From: Phascolarctobacterium succinatutens
GTDB taxonomy: Bacteria; Bacillota; Clostridia; Christensenellales; CAG-917
Reading direction: 5' to 3'
Assembly: GCA_963593735.1 (NCBI GenBank)
Contig: CAVBBF010000004.1
Coordinates: 1-63,896, forward strand
DNA: 63,896 bases
Within the stretch, counting starts at the first letter, position 1, and each line of letters begins with the position of its first letter. A program made the translations under genes and the position numbers. The notes below the pieces were generated by a model that made no database searches, was not told where the DNA came from, and saw only the letters and a list, made by a program, of their open reading frames with translations. Of this stretch, positions 69-51,675 are shown piece after piece.

Positions 69-3728
<3,660 letters not shown>

Positions 3729-3752
3729 TCGCAATTTTGCGAAATCACAAAG

Positions 3753-3779
3753 CCCCTCGAAATTTCGAGGGGTTTTTGC
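3753..3779 (+). terminator. rho-independent terminator of nifJ
   Basis: Perfect palindrome CCCCTCGAAATTTCGAGGGG followed by TTTTTG. Confidence 0.85.
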
Positions 3780-3786
3780 TTGTTTG

Positions 3787-3846
3787 AATTAATAATTTAA
3801 TAATGAATAATTAACAATTACGGGCGGGGTTTCACCCCACACCCCC
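3787..3846 (+). repeat. repeat family R1, copy a (AT-rich AATAATT-type run plus G/C hairpin)
   Basis: aattaataatttaataatgaataattaacaattac followed by GGGCGGGGTTTCACCCCACACCCCC. Same architecture at 12941-13002 (inverted), 38134-38193 and 38761-38807. Confidence 0.8.
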
Positions 3847-4560: not shown

Positions 4561-4651
4561 GTCATTCCGAGCGAAACGTGGGAATCAAGCGTAGCGAAAT
4601 GCGGCTTCGCCTTGATTCCTACGTCGCAACGATGTTGCTCCTCTGAATGAC
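4561..4651 (+). repeat. repeat family R2, copy a (about 90-nt nested-hairpin element)
   Basis: Closed by GTCATTC...GAATGAC. The core AGCGTAGCGAAATGCGGCTTCGCCTTGATT...ACGTCGCAACGATGTTGCTCCTC is nearly identical at 38408-38498. Confidence 0.8.
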
Positions 4652-4726
4652 AAACGGAAAACAGATTTGAGTATTCCGCGCGAGTGCTTGCTTGGTGTGT
4701 GCGTGCTATGCACGCAAGCGGATAGA

Positions 4727-5158
4727 CGAACACTTATTCGAAGCGTTCTTATAAACGTTATGTTTCTATTCGCAGACGGAATTGGAGCCGCAAGGCGGCG
4801 AGAAAAGGGAGCGCCGAGCTTTCGTCACGCACAAGCCCATTTGCTCCAACCGCAACAAGTTGCAATTGTTCGCCTTTGTGCTTTGCGTTCCTCGTCCCAC
4901 ACGCCAAAAACTGCTCTTTCATCATATAACTCAAACACAAGTTCGCTTGTTTTTGACGTGCGGGAACCCTTGTGCGTGTAGTACGAGAATGCGTGGCATT
5001 CCGTTGCGAAGCCGCCACGCAGGCGAAGTGGCATAATGAGTGAAATGCCCCTATCTATGCGAGTGCCGATTGTCTCCCCCGCGAACGACGATAACCTATA
5101 TAGAGAAATGCTCCTATTTGAGTGGTGGGAGAAATACCCGAGAGGGAAAGAGGGGGTG
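4727..5158 (+). repeat. repeat family R3, copy a (conserved ends, variable core)
   Basis: The 5' blocks CACTTATTCGAAGCGTTCTTATAAAC and GACGGAATTGGAGCCGCAAGGCGGCGAGAAAAGGGAGCGCCGAG, and the 3' block GCATAATGAGTGAAATGCCCCTATCTATGCGAGTGCCGATTGT, recur at 51265-51555. Shortened form at 29264-29355. Confidence 0.75.
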
Positions 5159-19802: not shown

Positions 19803-20074
19803 CTTTTAATTTAAGTATACCCTCAACCGACATAATTGTTGTATACTCTAAATATATAGCCCCCCTTCCTCACGTGTTTGGACTTCGGCGTTTGCAAAGC
19901 AATCCGCCTCGTTCGCTTTGGCTACAACACATTCACAGGATGTGTTGTTTAACGCGTCGCGCCCAACCGCCGTTACCCTCTACATTCTTTGAGGGAACAC
20001 ACAATGTCATCTTTGCATAGGCAGAGAGTAACTTTCATTCGTTATCCCGATTATTTTACTTTCAATGTATATCT

Positions 20075-21243: not shown

Positions 21244-21373
21244 AAAATAATGCGCCATTGAGATAAAGAACAAGAAAGAGGCACTTGTCCGGCAACCCTA
21301 ATTTACTAATGCGTAAATGAGTTGACAGACAAGTGCCTCTGCCGCAGTTATTTGCTCAATGGCGCATTATTTT
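21244..21373. other. long (about 130 nt) imperfect hairpin just 3' of purA
   Basis: Outer arms AAAATAATGCGCCATTGAG (21244-21262) and CTCAATGGCGCATTATTTT (21355-21373). Inner arms AGAGGCACTTGTC (21277-21289) and GACAAGTGCCTCT (21328-21340). Confidence 0.7.
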
Positions 21374-28726: not shown

Positions 28727-29173
28727 TTACAATCCGATTCCCAATAAAACGGAAGCCTTTCGTTTCAATTCTGCCTTATCCTCTTTGCCGAGGGTCTGTC
28801 CGTAGATTTCGCCGCGCTGTTTTGCAAAAACAAGCATCTTGAACTCGCTCATATTTGCGATTTCGGAAAAGGTTATTCCGCCGCCCGTACGCTTTGAAAA
28901 ATCGAAAAGCAATATGGCGCATTTTGCCTTCTGCTCGTCGATGTCGAATCTATTTGCAATCGCCTTTATGTTTTGCTCGCTCTTTGAGGACAGCACCTTC
29001 TCTTTTGCGATTTCTTCCTCATAAAACTTTACGACTTCGGGGGTCAGCAAGTCGCAAATCCCTGCTTCCGCAACCTCTTTCGGCACGGCAAAGCAACCGC
29101 AAATCGCAAACAGCGCAATGATAAGGCATATCCCGCCCGCCGCCAAAATAGTAGGCTTGTAAGAAATTTTCAT
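28727..29173 (-). CDS. small hypothetical lipoprotein or membrane-anchored protein
   Basis: MKISYKPTILAAGGICLIIALFAICGC has a hydrophobic N-terminus with a Cys. 148 aa. Confidence 0.5.
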   Translation of the reverse strand: MKISYKPTILAAGGICLIIALFAICGCFAVPKEVAEAGICDLLTPEVVKFYEEEIAKEKVLSSKSEQNIKAIANRFDIDEQKAKCAILLFDFSKRTGGGITFSEIANMSEFKMLVFAKQRGEIYGQTLGKEDKAELKRKASVLLGIGL

Positions 29174-29263
29174 ATTTCACCTCACCTCTATTTTGCGAGA
29201 AAATACTACTTTTATTCACGTTACTACTTACGGGATGGGCTTTGCTCACACCCGAAACGGCCG

Positions 29264-29355
29264 CCTATTCGAAGCCTACTCGTAAACGGAATTTGTAATT
29301 TCAAAGACAGAACACGAGCCGCAAGGCAATGGCCGTAGCGAGTGCCGAACTTGTA
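29264..29355 (+). repeat. repeat family R3, shortened copy c
   Basis: CCTATTCGAAGCC..., then AGACAGAACACGAGCCGCAAGGC joined almost directly to TAGCGAGTGCCGAACTTGT. The 5' and 3' blocks of R3 are present without the core. Confidence 0.55.
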
Positions 29356-29393
29356 TATGCCAAGCATCCGACAAAGCGCCGTATATAAAACAA

Positions 29394-30548
29394 TTAAGCC
29401 ATTTGCGAATAATCAATGTATAAAGACACAGCTCTTCTTATTTGCGATTTTACGGTAGTATTTAATATTGCAAAATCACGTTCTTTATCTAAGTAGAACA
29501 AATAAACGGGCTCTATTTTTTGAGGAAATGGCAAAATATAATTTGCTCTTTTAACTCTTGAAATAATATCTTTGATAGTTCTTTCGGAATAACGTTTTGC
29601 ATTTACCAAACTATGCTTAAAAGAGTCGTACTTGCTTTCTGTTTTTGTTTGTTCTGCTTCTTTGATATGAAATAGTAAGGCCTGTGCAACAAATTCTGCC
29701 AACTTTACAGGCACCGCATTACCTATCATTTGTTCTACATCTGTTTTATTTCCTACCCATTTATAGTCTGCAGGAAAAGTTTGAATAAGCGAACGCTCCA
29801 ATGTTGTTAAAGAACGAATAGAAGGATTGAGTGCGCAAGCGTCATTTGGATGTCCTGTATATCCTTTAGGGACAGGGCGATTTACACCTCTCATTGTGGG
29901 AGCGGGTTCATCTATTGAAAAAATGGCACGTCTTGAATAATTCCTAGGATGTCTATAATAATATTCAAAATCTAAAGAATTACCAAAATAATCCCGCAAT
30001 GTGGTTTCCTTTGGGGATATATGGCTTTCAAAATAGTCTAATAAAAATCCGTCATCCTGATTTAGAGAGCCTATACAGAAAAAACGCTTACGCTTTTGAG
30101 GGACACCGCAATGACTTGCGTCCAAAACTATTTCGGTTAAACCATATCCGGCGTTTTTAAAAACTGTTCGAGCATAGGCATAGTTATTGCTGATTGCGGC
30201 GCGGTCAACATTTTCCATTACAAAAAAACGTGGTTTAATGGTTGTGACAATTTGGGCGAACGCACTCGTCAAACTAGCCCTACCTGCCTCAATACGTTTT
30301 CCTGCTTGCGAGAAATCTTGACACGGTGGACCTCCTATTATAATATCGGGGGTAAATGCTTCGATTAGTTTTACTGCATTCTCTACATCTGACAAATCAG
30401 CCTTAATAATCGGGTGATTAAAGTTTTTCCCATAGCAAGCAACGGCAACATCCCAACACTCAAAACCTGCTTTAACTTTGAACCCGGCATTTTGGAAACC
30501 TAAACTTAAGCCGCCGCAACCCGCAAACAAATCAACAATAGCGTTCAT
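29394..30548 (-). CDS. DNA (cytosine-5)-methyltransferase with a C-terminal extension
   Basis: Motif I DLFAGCGG, motif IV GGPPCQDFS, motif VI FVMENV, motif VIII QKRKRFF, motif X GNAVPV. About 75 residues follow motif X. Confidence 0.9.
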   Translation of the reverse strand: MNAIVDLFAGCGGLSLGFQNAGFKVKAGFECWDVAVACYGKNFNHPIIKADLSDVENAVKLIEAFTPDIIIGGPPCQDFSQAGKRIEAGRASLTSAFAQIVTTIKPRFFVMENVDRAAISNNYAYARTVFKNAGYGLTEIVLDASHCGVPQKRKRFFCIGSLNQDDGFLLDYFESHISPKETTLRDYFGNSLDFEYYYRHPRNYSRRAIFSIDEPAPTMRGVNRPVPKGYTGHPNDACALNPSIRSLTTLERSLIQTFPADYKWVGNKTDVEQMIGNAVPVKLAEFVAQALLFHIKEAEQTKTESKYDSFKHSLVNAKRYSERTIKDIISRVKRANYILPFPQKIEPVYLFYLDKERDFAILNTTVKSQIRRAVSLYIDYSQMA

Positions 30549-30623
30549 ATTAGCTCCCCCCCCTTCTCTTGAGTTTTAGTAAGAAGTATGCTATACTGCA
30601 AATAACTATACCACGAAAGGAGA

Positions 30624-30647
30624 TTGGCGTCAACTTATTGACGCCAA
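30624..30647. promoter_or_regulatory. perfect 10-bp inverted repeat in the endonuclease 5' region
   Basis: TTGGCGTCAA ctta TTGACGCCAA, 13 nt upstream of the ATG at 30661. An AAGGAG (30617-30622) lies just 5' of it. Confidence 0.55.
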
Positions 30648-30660
30648 GAAATCAAAATTT

Positions 30661-31713
30661 ATGGCAACAGGATTATACGGGATAAAACATTCTAATAGAA
30701 CAGTAGATGAACATTGGGGTAAAAACAGATTTAATTCAAGTTTTCCCACCGCTTTAGCAAGTTATATGTTGGAACACGATTTACCCGCCATTTATATACA
30801 ACTTGAGGACAGTTCCGACAAACCGAAAGTTATTGCAACCGAAATCTCATTGCAAGAAGTTTTTAATACGCCGAATAAGACTACAGATGATTTATCTTTC
30901 AATTTTGAAACTGTTTTTGCTCCATATCAGGATTTTTCATTTGATAGAATTGACGGTATAGATTTGGTTGTAAAAAACACCAATGGTGAGTTCTTAACAC
31001 CACTTGAAGTAAAACTGACAGTATTACCGACTGACGGTACAAGTAAACACACTGAAAATAAATGGGGTTGCGAATTGGTAATCCGTTCGGCAACAACATC
31101 GTATTGTGCATTAGGAATGTATAACACTGTAAAAGAGCGGCACCGTGAAGTTCGCGAGATATTTGAAGATACTTGTTCATCCATTCAGATGTGGGATAAT
31201 AATTTTGAAATGACTCATAAAATGCCTCAAATTTGCTCTTGTATAGATGAGTTTCAAAAAAGATTTGTTAACTTCCAAAAACCATTGCTAATGCAAACAA
31301 TATGGAAAACTCAAGGAAAATCTCCGCTTTTAGCCGACAACGCCTTTGATATTGTTGTTTGGAGCGATTATGCTTTTTCTCGTCTATTCATTGATAGTTC
31401 AAATGAGTGTTTGAATGAAATGAGTAGACCTATGCGAGCAACAGCAAGGCTTGCAAGATGCCTTTGGGAATTAAGCAAATCCGGAAAAATTAGGATGACT
31501 GATATTTATAGGCAAATGGCTTTTGGCAATCAAACAGACAAAGAATTTGCTATAAATGGAGATAAGTGGAGAAGATATGTTTCTTCGGACAGAATCGTAA
31601 CGCCATTGCTCAAGAAAGAAATAGTTAATGAGATAATAGAGCCTCAATATTTGGAAAAATTAAGTCCCGAACGTCGATTTGACCAAACATTATATTTTAC
31701 AATGAAACAATAA
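30661..31713 (+). CDS. type II restriction endonuclease candidate (PD-(D/E)xK fold); specificity unknown
   Basis: Divergent partner of the C5 methyltransferase. Candidate catalytic motif is D in IDGIDLVV followed by LEVKL. 350 aa. The family name cannot be assigned by eye. Confidence 0.6.
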   Translation: MATGLYGIKHSNRTVDEHWGKNRFNSSFPTALASYMLEHDLPAIYIQLEDSSDKPKVIATEISLQEVFNTPNKTTDDLSFNFETVFAPYQDFSFDRIDGIDLVVKNTNGEFLTPLEVKLTVLPTDGTSKHTENKWGCELVIRSATTSYCALGMYNTVKERHREVREIFEDTCSSIQMWDNNFEMTHKMPQICSCIDEFQKRFVNFQKPLLMQTIWKTQGKSPLLADNAFDIVVWSDYAFSRLFIDSSNECLNEMSRPMRATARLARCLWELSKSGKIRMTDIYRQMAFGNQTDKEFAINGDKWRRYVSSDRIVTPLLKKEIVNEIIEPQYLEKLSPERRFDQTLYFTMKQ

Positions 31714-31767
31714 GGTTTTAGGGCTATTCGATTTACGTTACTAACGCTCCGCAGTGTGGATGTCATT

Positions 31768-31917
31768 GTGCCATAGGCACTCTGATTTTCCTCAACTGCA
31801 CCTACGGTGCAATTTCATTCTCGCAGAGCGAGAATTTCACACGAGCAAAGCGAGTATTTCACTGCGCAAAGCGCAATATCGTTGTGCCATAGGCGTCCCG
31901 CCTATGGCACAATATCC
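31768..31917 (+). repeat. tandem hairpin-plus-linker array (paralog of the 38.3-kb array)
   Basis: GTGCCataGGCAC. Then 22-nt units cTGCACCtacGGTGCAatttca / ttCTCGCagaGCGAGaatttca / cACGAGCaaaGCGAGTatttca / cTGCGCaaaGCGCAatatcg. Then a 14-bp perfect hairpin TTGTGCCATAGGCG tcc CGCCTATGGCACAA. Confidence 0.8.
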
Positions 31918-32639
31918 TCTATCCCGTACAATCCTTTGCTTTGCGTAAGGATAAACCTCAATGCCCGCAACGCGCCTTCGGCGTATACGCTTCGGCAAAA
32001 AACCTCGTGCCGCAAAACTATGCGTTCGCACCCCGTGTCGATAATCACTTCGTGTTCGCCGAGCGACGCGCCTATACGCAACGAATGTATGTTCACTTCC
32101 CCTTTTTCTCTGCCTATTCCTCTGTCGACGACGACTTTGCCGAACCCTCGCTCTCTGACTATACGCTTTGCAACGGAAAGTGCCGTGCCGCTTGGCGAGT
32201 CCATCTTTTTTGCGTGGTGCGCCTCGATGATTTCAATGTCTGCGTCGGGGAAAATCTGCGCAAGTTTTGCCGAAAAGCGTTTGAGATATGCGATTGCAAT
32301 CGACATATTGCTTGCCGTGAACACGGGGATTTGCCCGCTCGCTTTCTCGATATAATTGCGTTCATACGCCGTATGCCCCGTCGTTGCGACCACAAGCGGA
32401 ACGTTGCGTTTCACCGCAAATTCGACAACTTCGCACGTTGCCGTATGTAGCGAAAAATCGACGATTGCGTCCGCGCTTTCTTTCACATCGCATACGTTTG
32501 AATATCTTGCGACGACGCAATCCGACTCGCCGCCGTCGTTTTTGTCAACGGCGATAACCTCTATATCCCCCTCGGATTGAAAAAGGGCAAGCATCTGCCT
32601 GCCCATACGTCCCGATGCCCCCGTAAGAATAACTCTCAT
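31902..32639 (-). CDS. dapB: 4-hydroxy-tetrahydrodipicolinate reductase
   Basis: MRVILTGASGRMGRQM at the N-terminus and EAHHAKKMDSPSGTAL. 245 aa. The last three codons and the stop lie in the right arm of the 14-bp hairpin. Confidence 0.9.
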   Translation of the reverse strand: MRVILTGASGRMGRQMLALFQSEGDIEVIAVDKNDGGESDCVVARYSNVCDVKESADAIVDFSLHTATCEVVEFAVKRNVPLVVATTGHTAYERNYIEKASGQIPVFTASNMSIAIAYLKRFSAKLAQIFPDADIEIIEAHHAKKMDSPSGTALSVAKRIVRERGFGKVVVDRGIGREKGEVNIHSLRIGASLGEHEVIIDTGCERIVLRHEVFCRSVYAEGALRALRFILTQSKGLYGIEDIVP

Positions 32640-38133: not shown

Positions 38134-38193
38134 AATGAATAATTAATAATGAATAATTAATAATTTTGGGTGGGGTTGCACCCCACACCCTAA
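38134..38193 (+). repeat. repeat family R1, copy c
   Basis: aatgaataattaataatgaataattaataatttt followed by GGGTGGGGTTGCACCCCACACCCTAAA. Confidence 0.8.
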
Positions 38194-38250
38194 ACGAACG
38201 CTTATTCGTAGCGCACTTATTAACGTTATGTGCTAATTCGGAAACAGAAA

Positions 38251-38403
38251 GCGTGCTTCGCACGCATATGGAAAACGGAAGTTTTGAATCTTCCACAACT
38301 GCGTCGCAGACGCAATTTCACTTGCGCCGTGCGCAAATTTCACTGTGACAAACGTCACAATTTCACGCACACTTCGTGTGCATATCGCTGTGCCGCAGGC
38401 ACA
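38251..38403 (+). repeat. tandem hairpin-plus-linker array (seven hairpins; strict 22-23-nt units at 38299-38387)
   Basis: GCGTGCttcGCACGC-atatgg; GGAAGttttgaatCTTCC-acaa; cTGCGTCgcaGACGCAatttca; cTTGCGCcgtGCGCAAatttca; cTGTGACaaacGTCACAatttca; cGCACACttcGTGTGCatatcg; cTGTGCCgcaGGCACA. Confidence 0.85.
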
Positions 38404-38407
38404 CCTC

Positions 38408-38498
38408 GTCATTCAGAGGGAACGAAGTGACCGTAGGAATCCAGCGTAGCGAAATGCGGCTTCGCCTTGATTGCCACGTCACAACGATGTTGCTCCTC
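38408..38498 (+). repeat. repeat family R2, copy b
   Basis: GTCATTCAGAGGGAACGAAGTGACCGTAGGAATCCAGCGTAGCGAAATGCGGCTTCGCCTTGATTGCCACGTCACAACGATGTTGCTCCTC aligns with 4561-4651. The closing GAATGAC arm is missing here. Confidence 0.8.
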
Positions 38499-38657
38499 CA
38501 CGATGATTGTGCGCATTTAGCGCAAGCCTGCGGCTTTAATTTGCACAAGTGCAAATGCAATCACTCCAAAAATATCGTCGTTCGGAAACCCTTGCAAGCA
38601 AGTTTCCTCACTCGACATTGGCGCAATGACAAGTGGATAATTTCAAATCTTCCGCAA

Positions 38658-38736
38658 CCCAAACGGAGTTTGGATATCATCGTGCAGAATGCACGATATC
38701 ATCACGGAGTGATATCATCGCCATAGGCGATATCAT
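38658..38736 (+). repeat. tandem hairpin array with ATATCAT linker
   Basis: CCAAACggaGTTTGG-atatcat; CGTGCAgaaTGCACG-atatcat; CACggaGTG-atatcat; CGCCataGGCG-atatcat. Confidence 0.8.
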
Positions 38737-38760
38737 TTCTTTAATAGTAAAGGAAAATTT

Positions 38761-38807
38761 CTATTTATTAATAATAATTTTGGGTGGGGTTGCACCTCAC
38801 ACCCTAA
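38761..38807 (+). repeat. repeat family R1, copy d
   Basis: tatttattaataataatttt followed by GGGTGGGGTTGCACCTCACACCCTAAA. Same orientation as copy c, 14 nt from the stop of the next gene. Confidence 0.8.
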
Positions 38808-38820
38808 ATTATTTTAGTTT

Positions 38821-51198: not shown

Positions 51199-51264
51199 AG
51201 GATACGATACTCATTCGCAGACATAACAAAAACCGCCGCCCGCGAACTTGCAGAGCGGACTTTT

Positions 51265-51555
51265 AACACTCACTTATTCAAGGCGTTCTTATACAACTAC
51301 TCTGCCCTTTCGTAGACGGAACACGAGCCGCAACGGCGGCGAGAAAAGGGAGCGCCGAAGCTCGACGATTAGTACCGTCCGACTGTGCCGTTTGGGTGCG
51401 AAGCTGGCACACAAAGGACGGTGACATAATGAGAGAAATGTCCCTATCTATGCGAGTGCCGAGTGTTGCCCCACGCGGAGCGGACGTCGTGGGTTCCCTC
51501 AAAGTATGCAGAGGGGGAACGACGGTAGGGGAAACGCGTGAGGAAGGGGGAAGCT
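51265..51555 (+). repeat. repeat family R3, copy b
   Basis: CACTTATTCAAGGCGTTCTTATACAAC, GACGGAACACGAGCCGCAACGGCGGCGAGAAAAGGGAGCGCCGAAG and GACATAATGAGAGAAATGTCCCTATCTATGCGAGTGCCGAGTGT align with 4727-5158. The core is about 125 nt shorter. Confidence 0.75.
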
Positions 51556-51675
51556 TTATTTTTCTTTATCGTCAAGCCTGCTTTTATGACAAAAACGCCT
51601 TTTATGCGCAAAGTTTCTTTACTCGCTATTGACTTTTTTTGTCGTTATGTTAAACTGTTTTAAGAGGAAAACATC

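Follow-up and report, generated by a model that had tools for sequence, protein, structure and literature searches.

A Gut-1 hairpin array behind dapB in a gut Clostridia genome, with a stop-codon hairpin and a restriction islet added to it

In a 63,896-nt stretch of DNA assigned to Phascolarctobacterium succinatutens (contig CAVBBF010000004.1; the entire length of this stretch is called the window below, strand signs are relative to it, and relatives and metagenome loci are numbered L001 and onward), the spacer behind dapB, the gene for 4-hydroxy-tetrahydrodipicolinate reductase, holds a series of short hairpins that is a new, near-threshold copy of Gut-1 (RF01706), a catalogued, uncharacterized Rfam family. 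Comparison with relatives shows an order of events in which the array came first, a hairpin across the dapB stop codon second, and a restriction-modification (R-M) islet last. The first-pass annotation of this DNA had presented the array as a border structure of the islet and had left a choice between an element built around the dapB 3' end and an insertion that rewrote the DapB C-terminus. On this specific claim, the outcome is mostly deflationary: the C-terminus is ancestral, and the islet came to an existing array. As to function, we put about even confidence in the view that Gut-1 at dapB is a modular palindromic intergenic repeat, not a proven small RNA (sRNA), with the putative role of a two-way barrier at transcript ends.

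The array behind dapB is a near-threshold copy of Gut-1

The features of the dapB region on which the argument draws are these (the outgroup is L131 and L132, described below):
31902..32639, minus strand: dapB, 4-hydroxy-tetrahydrodipicolinate reductase, 245 aa (list of open reading frames and translation)
31882..31912: perfect 14-bp hairpin, arms 31882-31895 and 31899-31912, 3-nt loop (sequence and folding)
31876..31881, minus strand: first linker, variant CGATAT; the same variant at 38382-38387 and in L001, L003, L029, L037 and L044
31863..31875, minus strand: unit 1, TGCGC-TTT-GCGCA; a different hairpin at this place in L001 and L003
31840..31855, minus strand: unit 2, ACTCGCTTTGCTCGTG, a degenerate hairpin in which two internal positions are mismatched; L001 and L050 have the identical unit
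31818..31834, minus strand: unit 3, TTCTCGC-TCT-GCGAGAA, unlike the unit of L003, L073, L139 and the outgroup
31797..31811, minus strand: unit 4, TGCACC-GTA-GGTGCA, which recurs in the paralogous L073 array
31785..31796, minus strand: beginning of the conserved array tail, GTTGAGGAAAAT (comparison with L001 and the 38.3-kb array)
31807..31884, minus strand: Gut-1 (RF01706) match of three hairpins and GUGAAAU linkers, 49.3 bits (cmscan)
28727..29173, minus strand: orf148, an open reading frame of 148 aa that, in every relative and outgroup, is the next gene downstream of dapB, in the same direction

Read directly on the plus strand, 31765-31917 opens with ATTGTGCCATAGGCAC, followed by TCTGATTTTCCTCAAC and by TGCACC-TAC-GGTGCA with ATTTCA; then come TTCTCGC-AGA-GCGAGAA, which shares one base with the following ATTTCA, CACGAGCAAAGCGAGT with ATTTCA, and C-TGCGC-AAA-GCGCA with ATATCG, and the series ends with TTGTGCCATAGGCG-TCC-CGCCTATGGCACAA and TATCC. 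The ATTTCA linkers occupy 31812-31817, 31834-31839 and 31856-31861, at a spacing of 22 nt, and the ATATCG linker 31876-31881; Tandem Repeats Finder reports a period of 22 with 2.9 copies. The window contains the pattern ATTTCA-N14-18-ATTTCA 4 times, where 0.19 would be expected, and all cases fall in this array and a sister array at 38.3 kb. Folding z-scores are -5.5 on the minus strand and -6.8 on the plus strand, with 0/200 shuffles folding as well; neither strand of the array folds better than the other in this respect. The array, its linkers, the 14-bp perfect stem and the dapB stop in the right arm of that stem all lie where the first-pass annotation had placed them. Its description needs correcting in one unit, that at 31840-31855 (CACGAGCAAAGCGAGT), a degenerate hairpin with its two internal mismatches.

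Homologues of dapB carry PF01113 and PF05173 (Pfam). In the window, the gene ends GAT ATT GTG CCA TAG (...EDIVP), the TAG at 31902-31904 lying within the right hairpin arm, so that in the Gut-1 orientation the stop-spanning hairpin is the 5' hairpin of the array and includes the dapB codons Ile-Val-Pro-stop. The heptamer CAATATC stands on both sides of it, at 31874-31880 as part of the array's first linker and at 31910-31916 in the dapB Asp-Ile codons; the 14-bp hairpin is thus placed in the array like one more unit. A 13-mer, ATTGTGCCATAGG, which the earlier annotation had reported at 31765-31777 and which a sequence search located there on the plus strand, is also found at 31901-31913 on the minus strand, with a one-mismatch copy at 31881-31893 (+).

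A scan with Rfam covariance models (cmscan), for which the gathering score of Gut-1 is 50 bits, identified the family. The match at dapB, obtained with a permissive threshold, covers the full model (1-77/77) with an E value of 1.1e-6 for the whole window and falls 0.7 bits short of the gathering score, a deficit due to the degenerate unit 2: of the three hairpins that the model describes, two are perfect, and the middle one has two non-canonical pairs. Gut-1 is the sole Rfam family to reach its gathering score in the window, which it does at 38310-38390 (minus strand), in the first of two further arrays:
38300..38403, minus strand: sister array of four units plus a CTGTGCC-GCA-GGCACA hairpin; Gut-1 54.9 bits at 38310-38390, above threshold
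38646-38738, minus strand: third, more divergent array with GATATCAT linkers instead of GTGAAAT; Gut-1 35.5 bits at 38669-38738

The shared architecture that had been noted for the dapB and 38.3-kb arrays is borne out, since both match Gut-1 on the same strand. The body of the 38.3-kb array (38296-38404) is missing from the orthologue L050, which retains the adjacent tail hairpin module, and no target-site duplication is visible at this presence/absence junction between the window and L050. The array at 38646-38738 is conserved in L050, with stems intact and all three compared loops altered. A further copy of this third array occurs in L073 at 88% identity.

Gut-1 was defined from 43 human-gut metagenome sequences and rated a likely RNA by covariation (Weinberg et al. 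2010, Genome Biol 11:R31, PMC2864571); the sole comment in that description is that the motif is present in no sequenced organism (PMC2864571). We located no literature on Gut-1 function later than the 2010 description, and Rfam lists the family under the type Gene; sRNA. The dapB array shares with Gut-1 the GUGAAAU linker, at least three short hairpins and the habitat of the uncultured human gut, and differs in its first linker, CGATAT. Whereas the Rfam model spans the three-hairpin core only, the element extends beyond it, with a hairpin on the 5' side, units that vary in number, and a GTTGNGG tail that includes a tail hairpin. As a whole, it consists of the 5' hairpin, three to five short G+C-rich hairpins of differing sequence, and the GTTGNGG tail; as a rule, the short hairpins have a C-G closing pair, and an exact linker of 7 nt, G-TGAAAT, connects them, with CGATAT frequent as the first linker. 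The published account has neither function nor host; here, the window and its relatives put the motif, with its genomic context, in identifiable Clostridia metagenome-assembled genomes (MAGs), Christensenellales-like ones and 'Firmicutes bacterium CAG:238'.

The dapB end is ancestral and the hairpin is younger than the array

Relatives with 90-95% DapB identity belong to gut Clostridia MAGs, among them 'Christensenella sp. UBA6880', 'Firmicutes bacterium CAG:238', UMGS1042 and UMGS1331. In all five close relatives, dapB ends GAT ATT TTG CCG TAG (...EDILP), with a hairpin across the stop. The annotation had asked whether orthologues end in ...DIVP; these relatives have a different ending, and the exact IVP-ending protein was found on two contigs only, both of which carry the R-M pair. 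More broadly, the tails of DapB homologues vary after a conserved D-[ILV]-[LIV], as in EDILP, EDILQ, EDILL, EDLI, EDLIDD, EDLLNFH and DIVK.

What follows the stop codon differs among the close relatives. In L001 and in the metagenome orthologue L050, an array of four units is present and R-M genes are absent; L002 and L005 retain the hairpin, CGATAT and half of unit 1, with other repeats thereafter; and L006 retains only the stop-spanning hairpin and GATAT. It had been suggested that repeat-free dapB genes with the same end would reduce the hairpin to an ordinary terminator. The record is divided on this point: L006, L002 and L005 are free of the array and yet keep the hairpin, but they also keep GATAT of the first linker, and because of this they look like deletion remnants, not virgin sites.

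The outgroups L131 and L132, with DapB 65% identical and the synteny dapB-orf148-transketolase preserved, place these alleles in order. Their dapB end and the start of the spacer read GAT ATT TTG CAG TAG GCGG TAAAAACGTGGCGA AGATAT TGCGCTTTGCGCG GTGTAAT, and the array continues with GCGCGCGAAGCGTGCG TGAAAT CGTGCTTGTACACAG AGAAAT TGCC..GCCGCA GCTGAG, the final part being GCAGCTGAG. The stem and loop of unit 1 in the window are identical in L132 and differ by one mismatch in L131. Given an outgroup array with the same first unit, the array must be older than the deep split, and it was evidently in place before the divergence of species with only 65% DapB identity. The outgroup end, TTG CAG TAG GCGG, is one base off the TTG CCG TAG GCGG of the close clade; since TTG CMG TAG GCGG is shared, the last codons and the bases after the stop are ancestral sequence of the dapB locus. 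There is no G+C-rich stop-spanning hairpin in L131 or L132, though the array sits behind dapB in both. By this comparison, the hairpin arose in the EDILP clade, where the bases between GCGG and GGCGCAA turned complementary to the dapB end.

In the window, the change to the protein is limited to one Leu to Val replacement, accompanied by a silent CCG to CCA change. Relative to L001 and L003, both arms have changed in a compensating manner, TTG CCG to GTG CCA on one side and GCCTACGGCGCAA to GCCTATGGCACAA on the other, which yields the perfect 14-bp stem at the cost of one conservative substitution. The altered arm is now identical to the copy at 31765-31777 in the islet junction, and L003 has a copy of the 31765-31777 type without the matching dapB arm; from this we infer that local gene conversion, followed by arm-to-arm correction, produced the hairpin arms of the window. 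Of the two origins initially proposed, an insertion that rewrote the dapB C-terminus fails against the ancestral codons of the outgroup and the restriction of the change to Leu to Val, whereas an element built around the dapB 3' end agrees with the outgroup comparison, in which the hairpin was added onto ancestral codons.

These comparisons also bear on the idea that the terminal hairpin is simply the intrinsic terminator of dapB and that the array-like units are coincidental. As in Rho-independent terminators that overlap a stop codon, the stop of dapB falls within a stable G+C-rich hairpin at the transcript 3' end, and the conservation of this hairpin in five relatives, three of them without the full array, would fit. 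In contrast to such terminators, however, the hairpin has no U-tract: on the minus strand it is followed by CGAUAUUGCGC, a terminator scan gave no minus-strand site, and four more hairpins with GUGAAAU between them come after it. The array matches a curated covariance model with E values of about 1e-6 to 6e-9, the linker pattern is 20-fold above chance, the array-free relatives still hold GATAT of the first linker, and the outgroup has the array and no hairpin. We therefore regard this explanation as highly improbable, and an ordinary dapB terminator was rejected on account of the missing U-tract and the outgroup array without a hairpin.

The restriction-modification islet came to an existing array

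On the other side of the array, the window holds the following features:
29216..31784: R-M islet and junction sequences, 2.6 kb, absent in L001 and L050 (blastn break points and composition)
29394..30548, minus strand: C5 cytosine DNA methyltransferase gene (Pfam PF00145, E 1e-62)
30661..31713, plus strand: HindVP-family restriction endonuclease gene, convergent with dapB (Pfam PF09519, E 9e-90)
31726..31784, plus strand: junction segment of about 60 nt, common to L003 (GmrSD cargo) and L139 (R-M cargo) and absent from L001

The array does adjoin a real inserted, AT-richer R-M islet and lies between the nuclease gene and dapB, as first described (Pfam, blastn and G+C content agree): blastn homology of L001 and L050 to the window stops at 29215 and 31785, and the G+C fraction is 0.33-0.43 over 29200-31800 against 0.45-0.53 in the flanks. 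The remaining tail hairpin, present in L001 and in the 38.3-kb array, has been supplanted in the window by the islet side. The junction segment includes the hairpin GTGCC-ATA-GGCAC (31768-31780), which is followed by TCTGATTTTC, and the second copy of the 13-mer (31765-31777). Together, GTGCCATAGGCAC and TCTGATTTTC at 31768-31780 (+) fit the intrinsic-terminator consensus, as a consensus match only, 55 nt past the nuclease stop at 31713, and look like the predicted terminator of the HindVP nuclease gene.

The same junction is found with other cargo. L003 has the array, the same junction of about 60 nt and then a GmrSD-type (type IV) nuclease gene (3004-3765, minus strand; Pfam GmrSD_C), and L139 (760-1957) has a HindVP gene 95% identical to that of the window, the R-M pair, the same junction and an array of other units. 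As judged from these alleles, the dapB-side junction is a small defense hot spot with exchangeable cargo. The locus has at least five structural alleles, with break points at the first linker (L006), in unit 1 (L002, L005) and, for the window, L003 and L139 relative to L001, in the tail, all within the array of about 130 nt. This series, with array only, array plus either restriction system, truncated array or none, makes a natural comparison set.

The reverse association is not seen. Three HindVP/methylase pairs at 78-85% identity have no array, no 60-nt junction and no shared edge beside them; one lies in a conjugative-element-like region with PcfJ/PcfK, one next to IMPDH and one next to a LacI-family gene. 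The adjacency is, then, a property of the dapB locus and not of R-M modules, and the array is older than the islet, given that L001, L050 and the outgroup carry an array but no islet. The notion that the array is a border structure of the islet is not supported, the array standing alone in L001 and L050 and the related pairs elsewhere being array-free.

Two simple mobility scenarios were considered and rejected. The 13-mer is not a target-site duplication or att core of the islet: its direct copies (31765-31777 and 31881-31893) lie on either side of the array and not of the islet; in L003 the distal copy is present but the matching dapB arm is not, and in L001 the array is present but the distal copy is not. 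Nor is the 60-nt junction part of a mobile R-M module, as it does not accompany the three related pairs. Separately, the left islet junction contains a short dispersed repeat (29249-29327), which L005 has at the orthologous position as well.

Gut-1 arrays across gut metagenomes

When metagenomes were scanned with a three-linker pattern, 120 loci were obtained, about half of them true arrays, largely from human-gut assemblies; 88 arrays were parsed, 56 of them distinct (four of these were subsequently discarded as plain tandem repeats), and they yielded 114 distinct units, 105 of which entered the scoring. The linker reads exactly G-TGAAAT, and the stem begins right after it in 100/105 units. 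Stems have 4-8 bp and loops mainly 3-4 nt. Across the 105 units, stem pairs comprise 583 Watson-Crick pairs (98%) against 6 G·T and 4 A·C, and this ratio of 6 to 4 is uninformative for strand assignment. The arrays are always intergenic, with no orientation bias relative to the flanking genes (convergent in 10 cases, divergent in 7, tandem in 14) and no enrichment of terminators behind them, a canonical intrinsic terminator following 9 of 42 in either orientation. Units have been deleted, gained, fused or swapped between alleles, and 11/111 recur within unrelated flanks. Alleles differ chiefly in loops, in a comparison whose flanks are coding or constrained and which therefore gives no case for loops evolving faster than neutral. 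The Rfam model matches many loci as inverted pairs, often just past a tRNA gene and its terminator. A scan of viral contigs with the array pattern found no arrays, only tandem repeats and chance matches in coding sequence.

The loops are strongly asymmetric between strands. On the Gut-1 strand, they contain 274 pyrimidines against 114 purines (p = 3e-16), and the closing pair is C-G in 92/105 units; on the complementary strand, GNA accounts for 29 of 56 triloops and GNRA for 16 of 36 tetraloops, compared with 2 and 0 on the annotated strand. C-GNA-G and C-GNRA-G loops are especially stable. The better-folding strand is thus opposite to the Rfam orientation, which suggests that the annotated strand of RF01706 may be the wrong one. 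Together, the loop bias and the C-G closing pair point to selection on a folded form of a single strand. For orientation relative to replication, the GC skew shows a weak trend, the Gut-1 strand being the G-rich one in 13/16 loci that are non-independent.

Two groups of arrays deserve separate description. L073 (13285-13440) has a paralogous dapB-type array behind an unrelated gene and its terminator, and in the head of this copy, TTTGCCGTATGCAGAGCCTACGGCGCAA matches the region of the dapB stop-codon hairpin; given this head, the array was evidently moved or copied along with its head hairpin. In the tRNA-linked arrays (L125, L126, L080, L081, L093, L100, L109), the first linker and the 5' arm of unit 1, for example TGAAATTCGTTCC, are repeated as the reverse complement past the last unit, forming a covarying closing inverted repeat of 11-14 bp that could make an alternative long-range stem; a closing inverted repeat as a general feature of the family was rejected, since it holds for this subfamily only. 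In L109 (1-4091; also L080, L081, L126, L100 and L116), cassettes lie downstream of a tRNA gene, three consecutive ones in L109 itself, each flanked by a strong terminator and an inverted Gut-1 pair and each ending in a conserved spacer of about 200 nt. In arrays of the L109 type, the last ATTTCAC linker runs directly into a near-consensus -35/-10 promoter, and two of the cassettes encode 23S_rRNA_IVP (PF05635) proteins together with a variable small open reading frame.

The Rfam type corresponds to one explanation of these properties, namely, that Gut-1 is a trans-acting sRNA in the GUGAAAU orientation, with linkers that titrate an RNA-binding protein in the manner of CsrB/RsmZ for CsrA, the dapB copy being derived from a 3' untranslated region. 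This would account for the covariation rating as likely RNA (PMC2864571), the regular recurrence of a single-stranded 7-nt linker in three to five exact copies and the retention of the array behind dapB over a deep divergence; further, all three window copies are co-oriented with the upstream gene, at several loci the array begins no more than about 15 nt from a co-oriented stop codon, and in the main seed subfamily a strong terminator follows at a distance of about 130 nt. We nevertheless consider it unlikely. G·U makes up about 1% of the stem pairs, equal to A·C. Such a low share of G·U is unusual in RNA stems that evolve by covariation. Moreover, neither gene orientation nor the terminator is consistent, tRNA-linked copies start on the last T of a strong terminator and leave no room for a promoter, inverted pairs of copies are frequent, and the favored GNA/GNRA loops closed by C-G are on the strand opposite to the Rfam orientation.

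The same strand asymmetry could instead reflect DNA structure. Gut-1 would then be a recombination element whose hairpins are extruded in single-stranded DNA and serve as sites of cassette insertion or exchange, loosely like the structure-recognized attC sites of integrons. Stems that are near-perfect Watson-Crick palindromes would suit such a role, as would two defense cargos (HindVP R-M and GmrSD) at the same array-side junction, at least four independent break points within the array, and the three consecutive L109 cassettes bounded by terminators and inverted arrays past a tRNA gene. A GNA triloop closed by C-G is a very stable DNA mini-hairpin motif, and the C-G-closed GNA triloops on one strand match it. 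Gut-1 resembles attC in pairing palindromes of variable sequence with short conserved motifs beside them and in its position at the edges of exchangeable genes, but attC is one long imperfect hairpin and Gut-1 a run of several small ones, in which there are no R''/L''-L'/R' boxes and no extrahelical bases; the array tail, GTTGAGG, deviates from the attC core GTTRRRY at the last base, and no IntI was found among the neighboring genes scanned against Pfam. With no recombinase gene in the islet or beside the arrays examined, no visible target-site duplication where alleles differ in the presence of the 38.3-kb array, related R-M modules without arrays elsewhere, a 60-nt junction that may be plain host sequence, and most arrays lying away from variable DNA (that at dapB persisted islet-free in L001, L050 and the outgroup), we rate recombination as decidedly unlikely. 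Its strongest form, in which Gut-1 arrays are single-strand DNA hairpin modules with the functional strand opposite to the Rfam annotation, acting as integron-like cassette junctions with a putative recombinase, and with stems kept perfect by intrastrand template switching that overrode a codon (dapB Leu to Val), strikes us as a long shot. The same holds for the corollary that the cargo of such junctions would be restriction systems next to dapB and cassettes of 23S_rRNA_IVP, a four-helix-bundle family, next to tRNA genes, a proposal that we make with great reserve.

Alternatively, the array could be a selfish or neutral miniature repeat akin to miniature inverted-repeat transposable elements (MITEs) or to repetitive extragenic palindromic (REP) sequences, with no role at dapB, the overlap with the stop codon being an accident of palindrome growth by template switching. 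We hold this, too, to be unlikely. The preservation of unit 1, linkers and tail at an orthologous site across 65% DapB identity argues against it, as a neutral spacer would not stay recognizable, and the strand-specific loops and C-G closing pair point to selection on the folded form. It would explain why the same array or unit series stands in unrelated flanks (L073 compared with the dapB locus; subfamilies B1 and B2, and L116) and why presence/absence polymorphisms occur; the genome has several other small intergenic repeat families, and perfect stems fit intrastrand templated correction. MITE features are mixed: the dapB copy has a 14-bp inverted repeat (31765-31778 against 31900-31913) that is not general to window-type arrays, and copies are dispersed as just listed, with no duplication at the 38.3-kb empty site. 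No partner transposase, RAYT included, was found among the genes around the two arrays that were scanned against Pfam, and the 105 scored units lack the conserved palindrome with 5' GTAG that is characteristic of REP. A CRISPR-like array was rejected as well, the conserved part being only 7 nt, the "spacers" 12-20-nt palindromes and the surroundings free of cas genes.

A possible barrier at transcript ends

Taken as a whole, Gut-1 arrays act as modular, indel-prone, orientation-free palindromic repeats and make a poor fit to the classic sRNA gene of Rfam. The barrier role that we favor is drawn from perfect palindromes able to fold on either strand, from the placement of arrays at gene ends irrespective of orientation, from retention at a single orthologous site and from an invariant linker. 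The history at dapB begins with an array resident in the dapB-orf148 spacer since before the deep split marked by 65% DapB identity. In the lineage of the window, the stretch from the dapB stop to the first linker became complementary to the last codons, and the resulting stop-spanning hairpin, perfect in the window, behaves as an additional unit of the array. Later, the 2.6-kb R-M module or, in another lineage, the GmrSD nuclease gene was inserted into the array tail, setting a convergent nuclease gene opposite dapB, so that in the window the array now separates the two. The hairpin stack would be transcribed as the 3' trailer of dapB and, on the other strand, of the nuclease gene, and in either orientation it would block 3' exonucleases and hinder read-through, as REP/BIME (bacterial interspersed mosaic element) and BOX repeats do. 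The invariant single-stranded linker implies a binding factor and probably contacts this putative partner. At the DNA level, the same palindromes may turn the spacer into a hot spot, where sequence is deleted or inserted and units are replaced.

The closest known parallels are REP/BIME of Enterobacteria and BOX of Streptococcus pneumoniae. REP/BIME, too, are clustered short intergenic palindromes, often past stop codons or between convergent genes, that fold on either strand, stabilize upstream mRNA and are hot spots of rearrangement. REP stems, however, are conserved in sequence, imperfect, and preceded by a 5' GTAG that RAYT transposases recognize, whereas Gut-1 stems are nearly perfect and different in each unit, the conserved part being the single-stranded linker G-TGAAAT. 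BOX (boxA-boxB(n)-boxC) resembles Gut-1 in having a head, variable middle units and a tail, in being intergenic and strongly folding, and in a unit number that depends on the allele; the boxB copies are 45 nt long and near-identical, in contrast to Gut-1 units of about 22 nt with unrelated stems, and the two share no sequence similarity.

Several observations weigh against a barrier role. No U-tract follows the hairpins on the dapB strand, where they do not form a canonical intrinsic terminator. A role purely as a hairpin barrier leaves the invariant 7-nt linker unexplained, and the variation of Gut-1 stems from unit to unit contrasts with the sequence-conserved units of REP, BIME and BOX, on which the analogy draws. 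Some subfamilies have features beyond the model, such as closing inverted repeats of 13 bp and a site right after a tRNA gene and its terminator; some arrays lie directly upstream of a -35 box; and one subfamily, with a possible promoter region on one side and a strong terminator on the other, could be an sRNA in its own right.

Other repeats in the window

The surroundings of the 38.3-kb arrays are themselves rich in repeats. A 37-nt direct repeat, AATAATTTTGGGTGGGGTTGCACCYCACACCCTAAA, at 38158-38194 and 38772-38808 encloses a 600-nt patchwork of small repeats between a histidine-kinase gene and a PTS EIIC gene, and related copies occur at 3797-3844 in the window and in the dapB spacer of L127/L128. 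A further module, GTCATTCAGAGGGAACGAAGTGACCGTAGGAATC...GCGAAAT-hairpin, lies head to head with the 38.3-kb array at 38406-38498 (+); the GTCATTCAGAGGGAACGAAGTGACCGTAGGAATC module recurs at 4561-4656 and, in L037, L060 and L095, stands behind a Gut-1 array in direct orientation. At 51214-51563 there is a repeat some 350 nt long, with partial copies at 4725-4821 and 5005-5085 and no Rfam match, which is found at 80-95% identity in many unrelated gut contigs (L037, L044, L054, L060, L068 and L073). Finally, short dispersed repeat families at 19841-19974 and 21249-21371, together with that at 29249-29327 mentioned above, are shared with the gut contigs L044, L066, L073 and L095.

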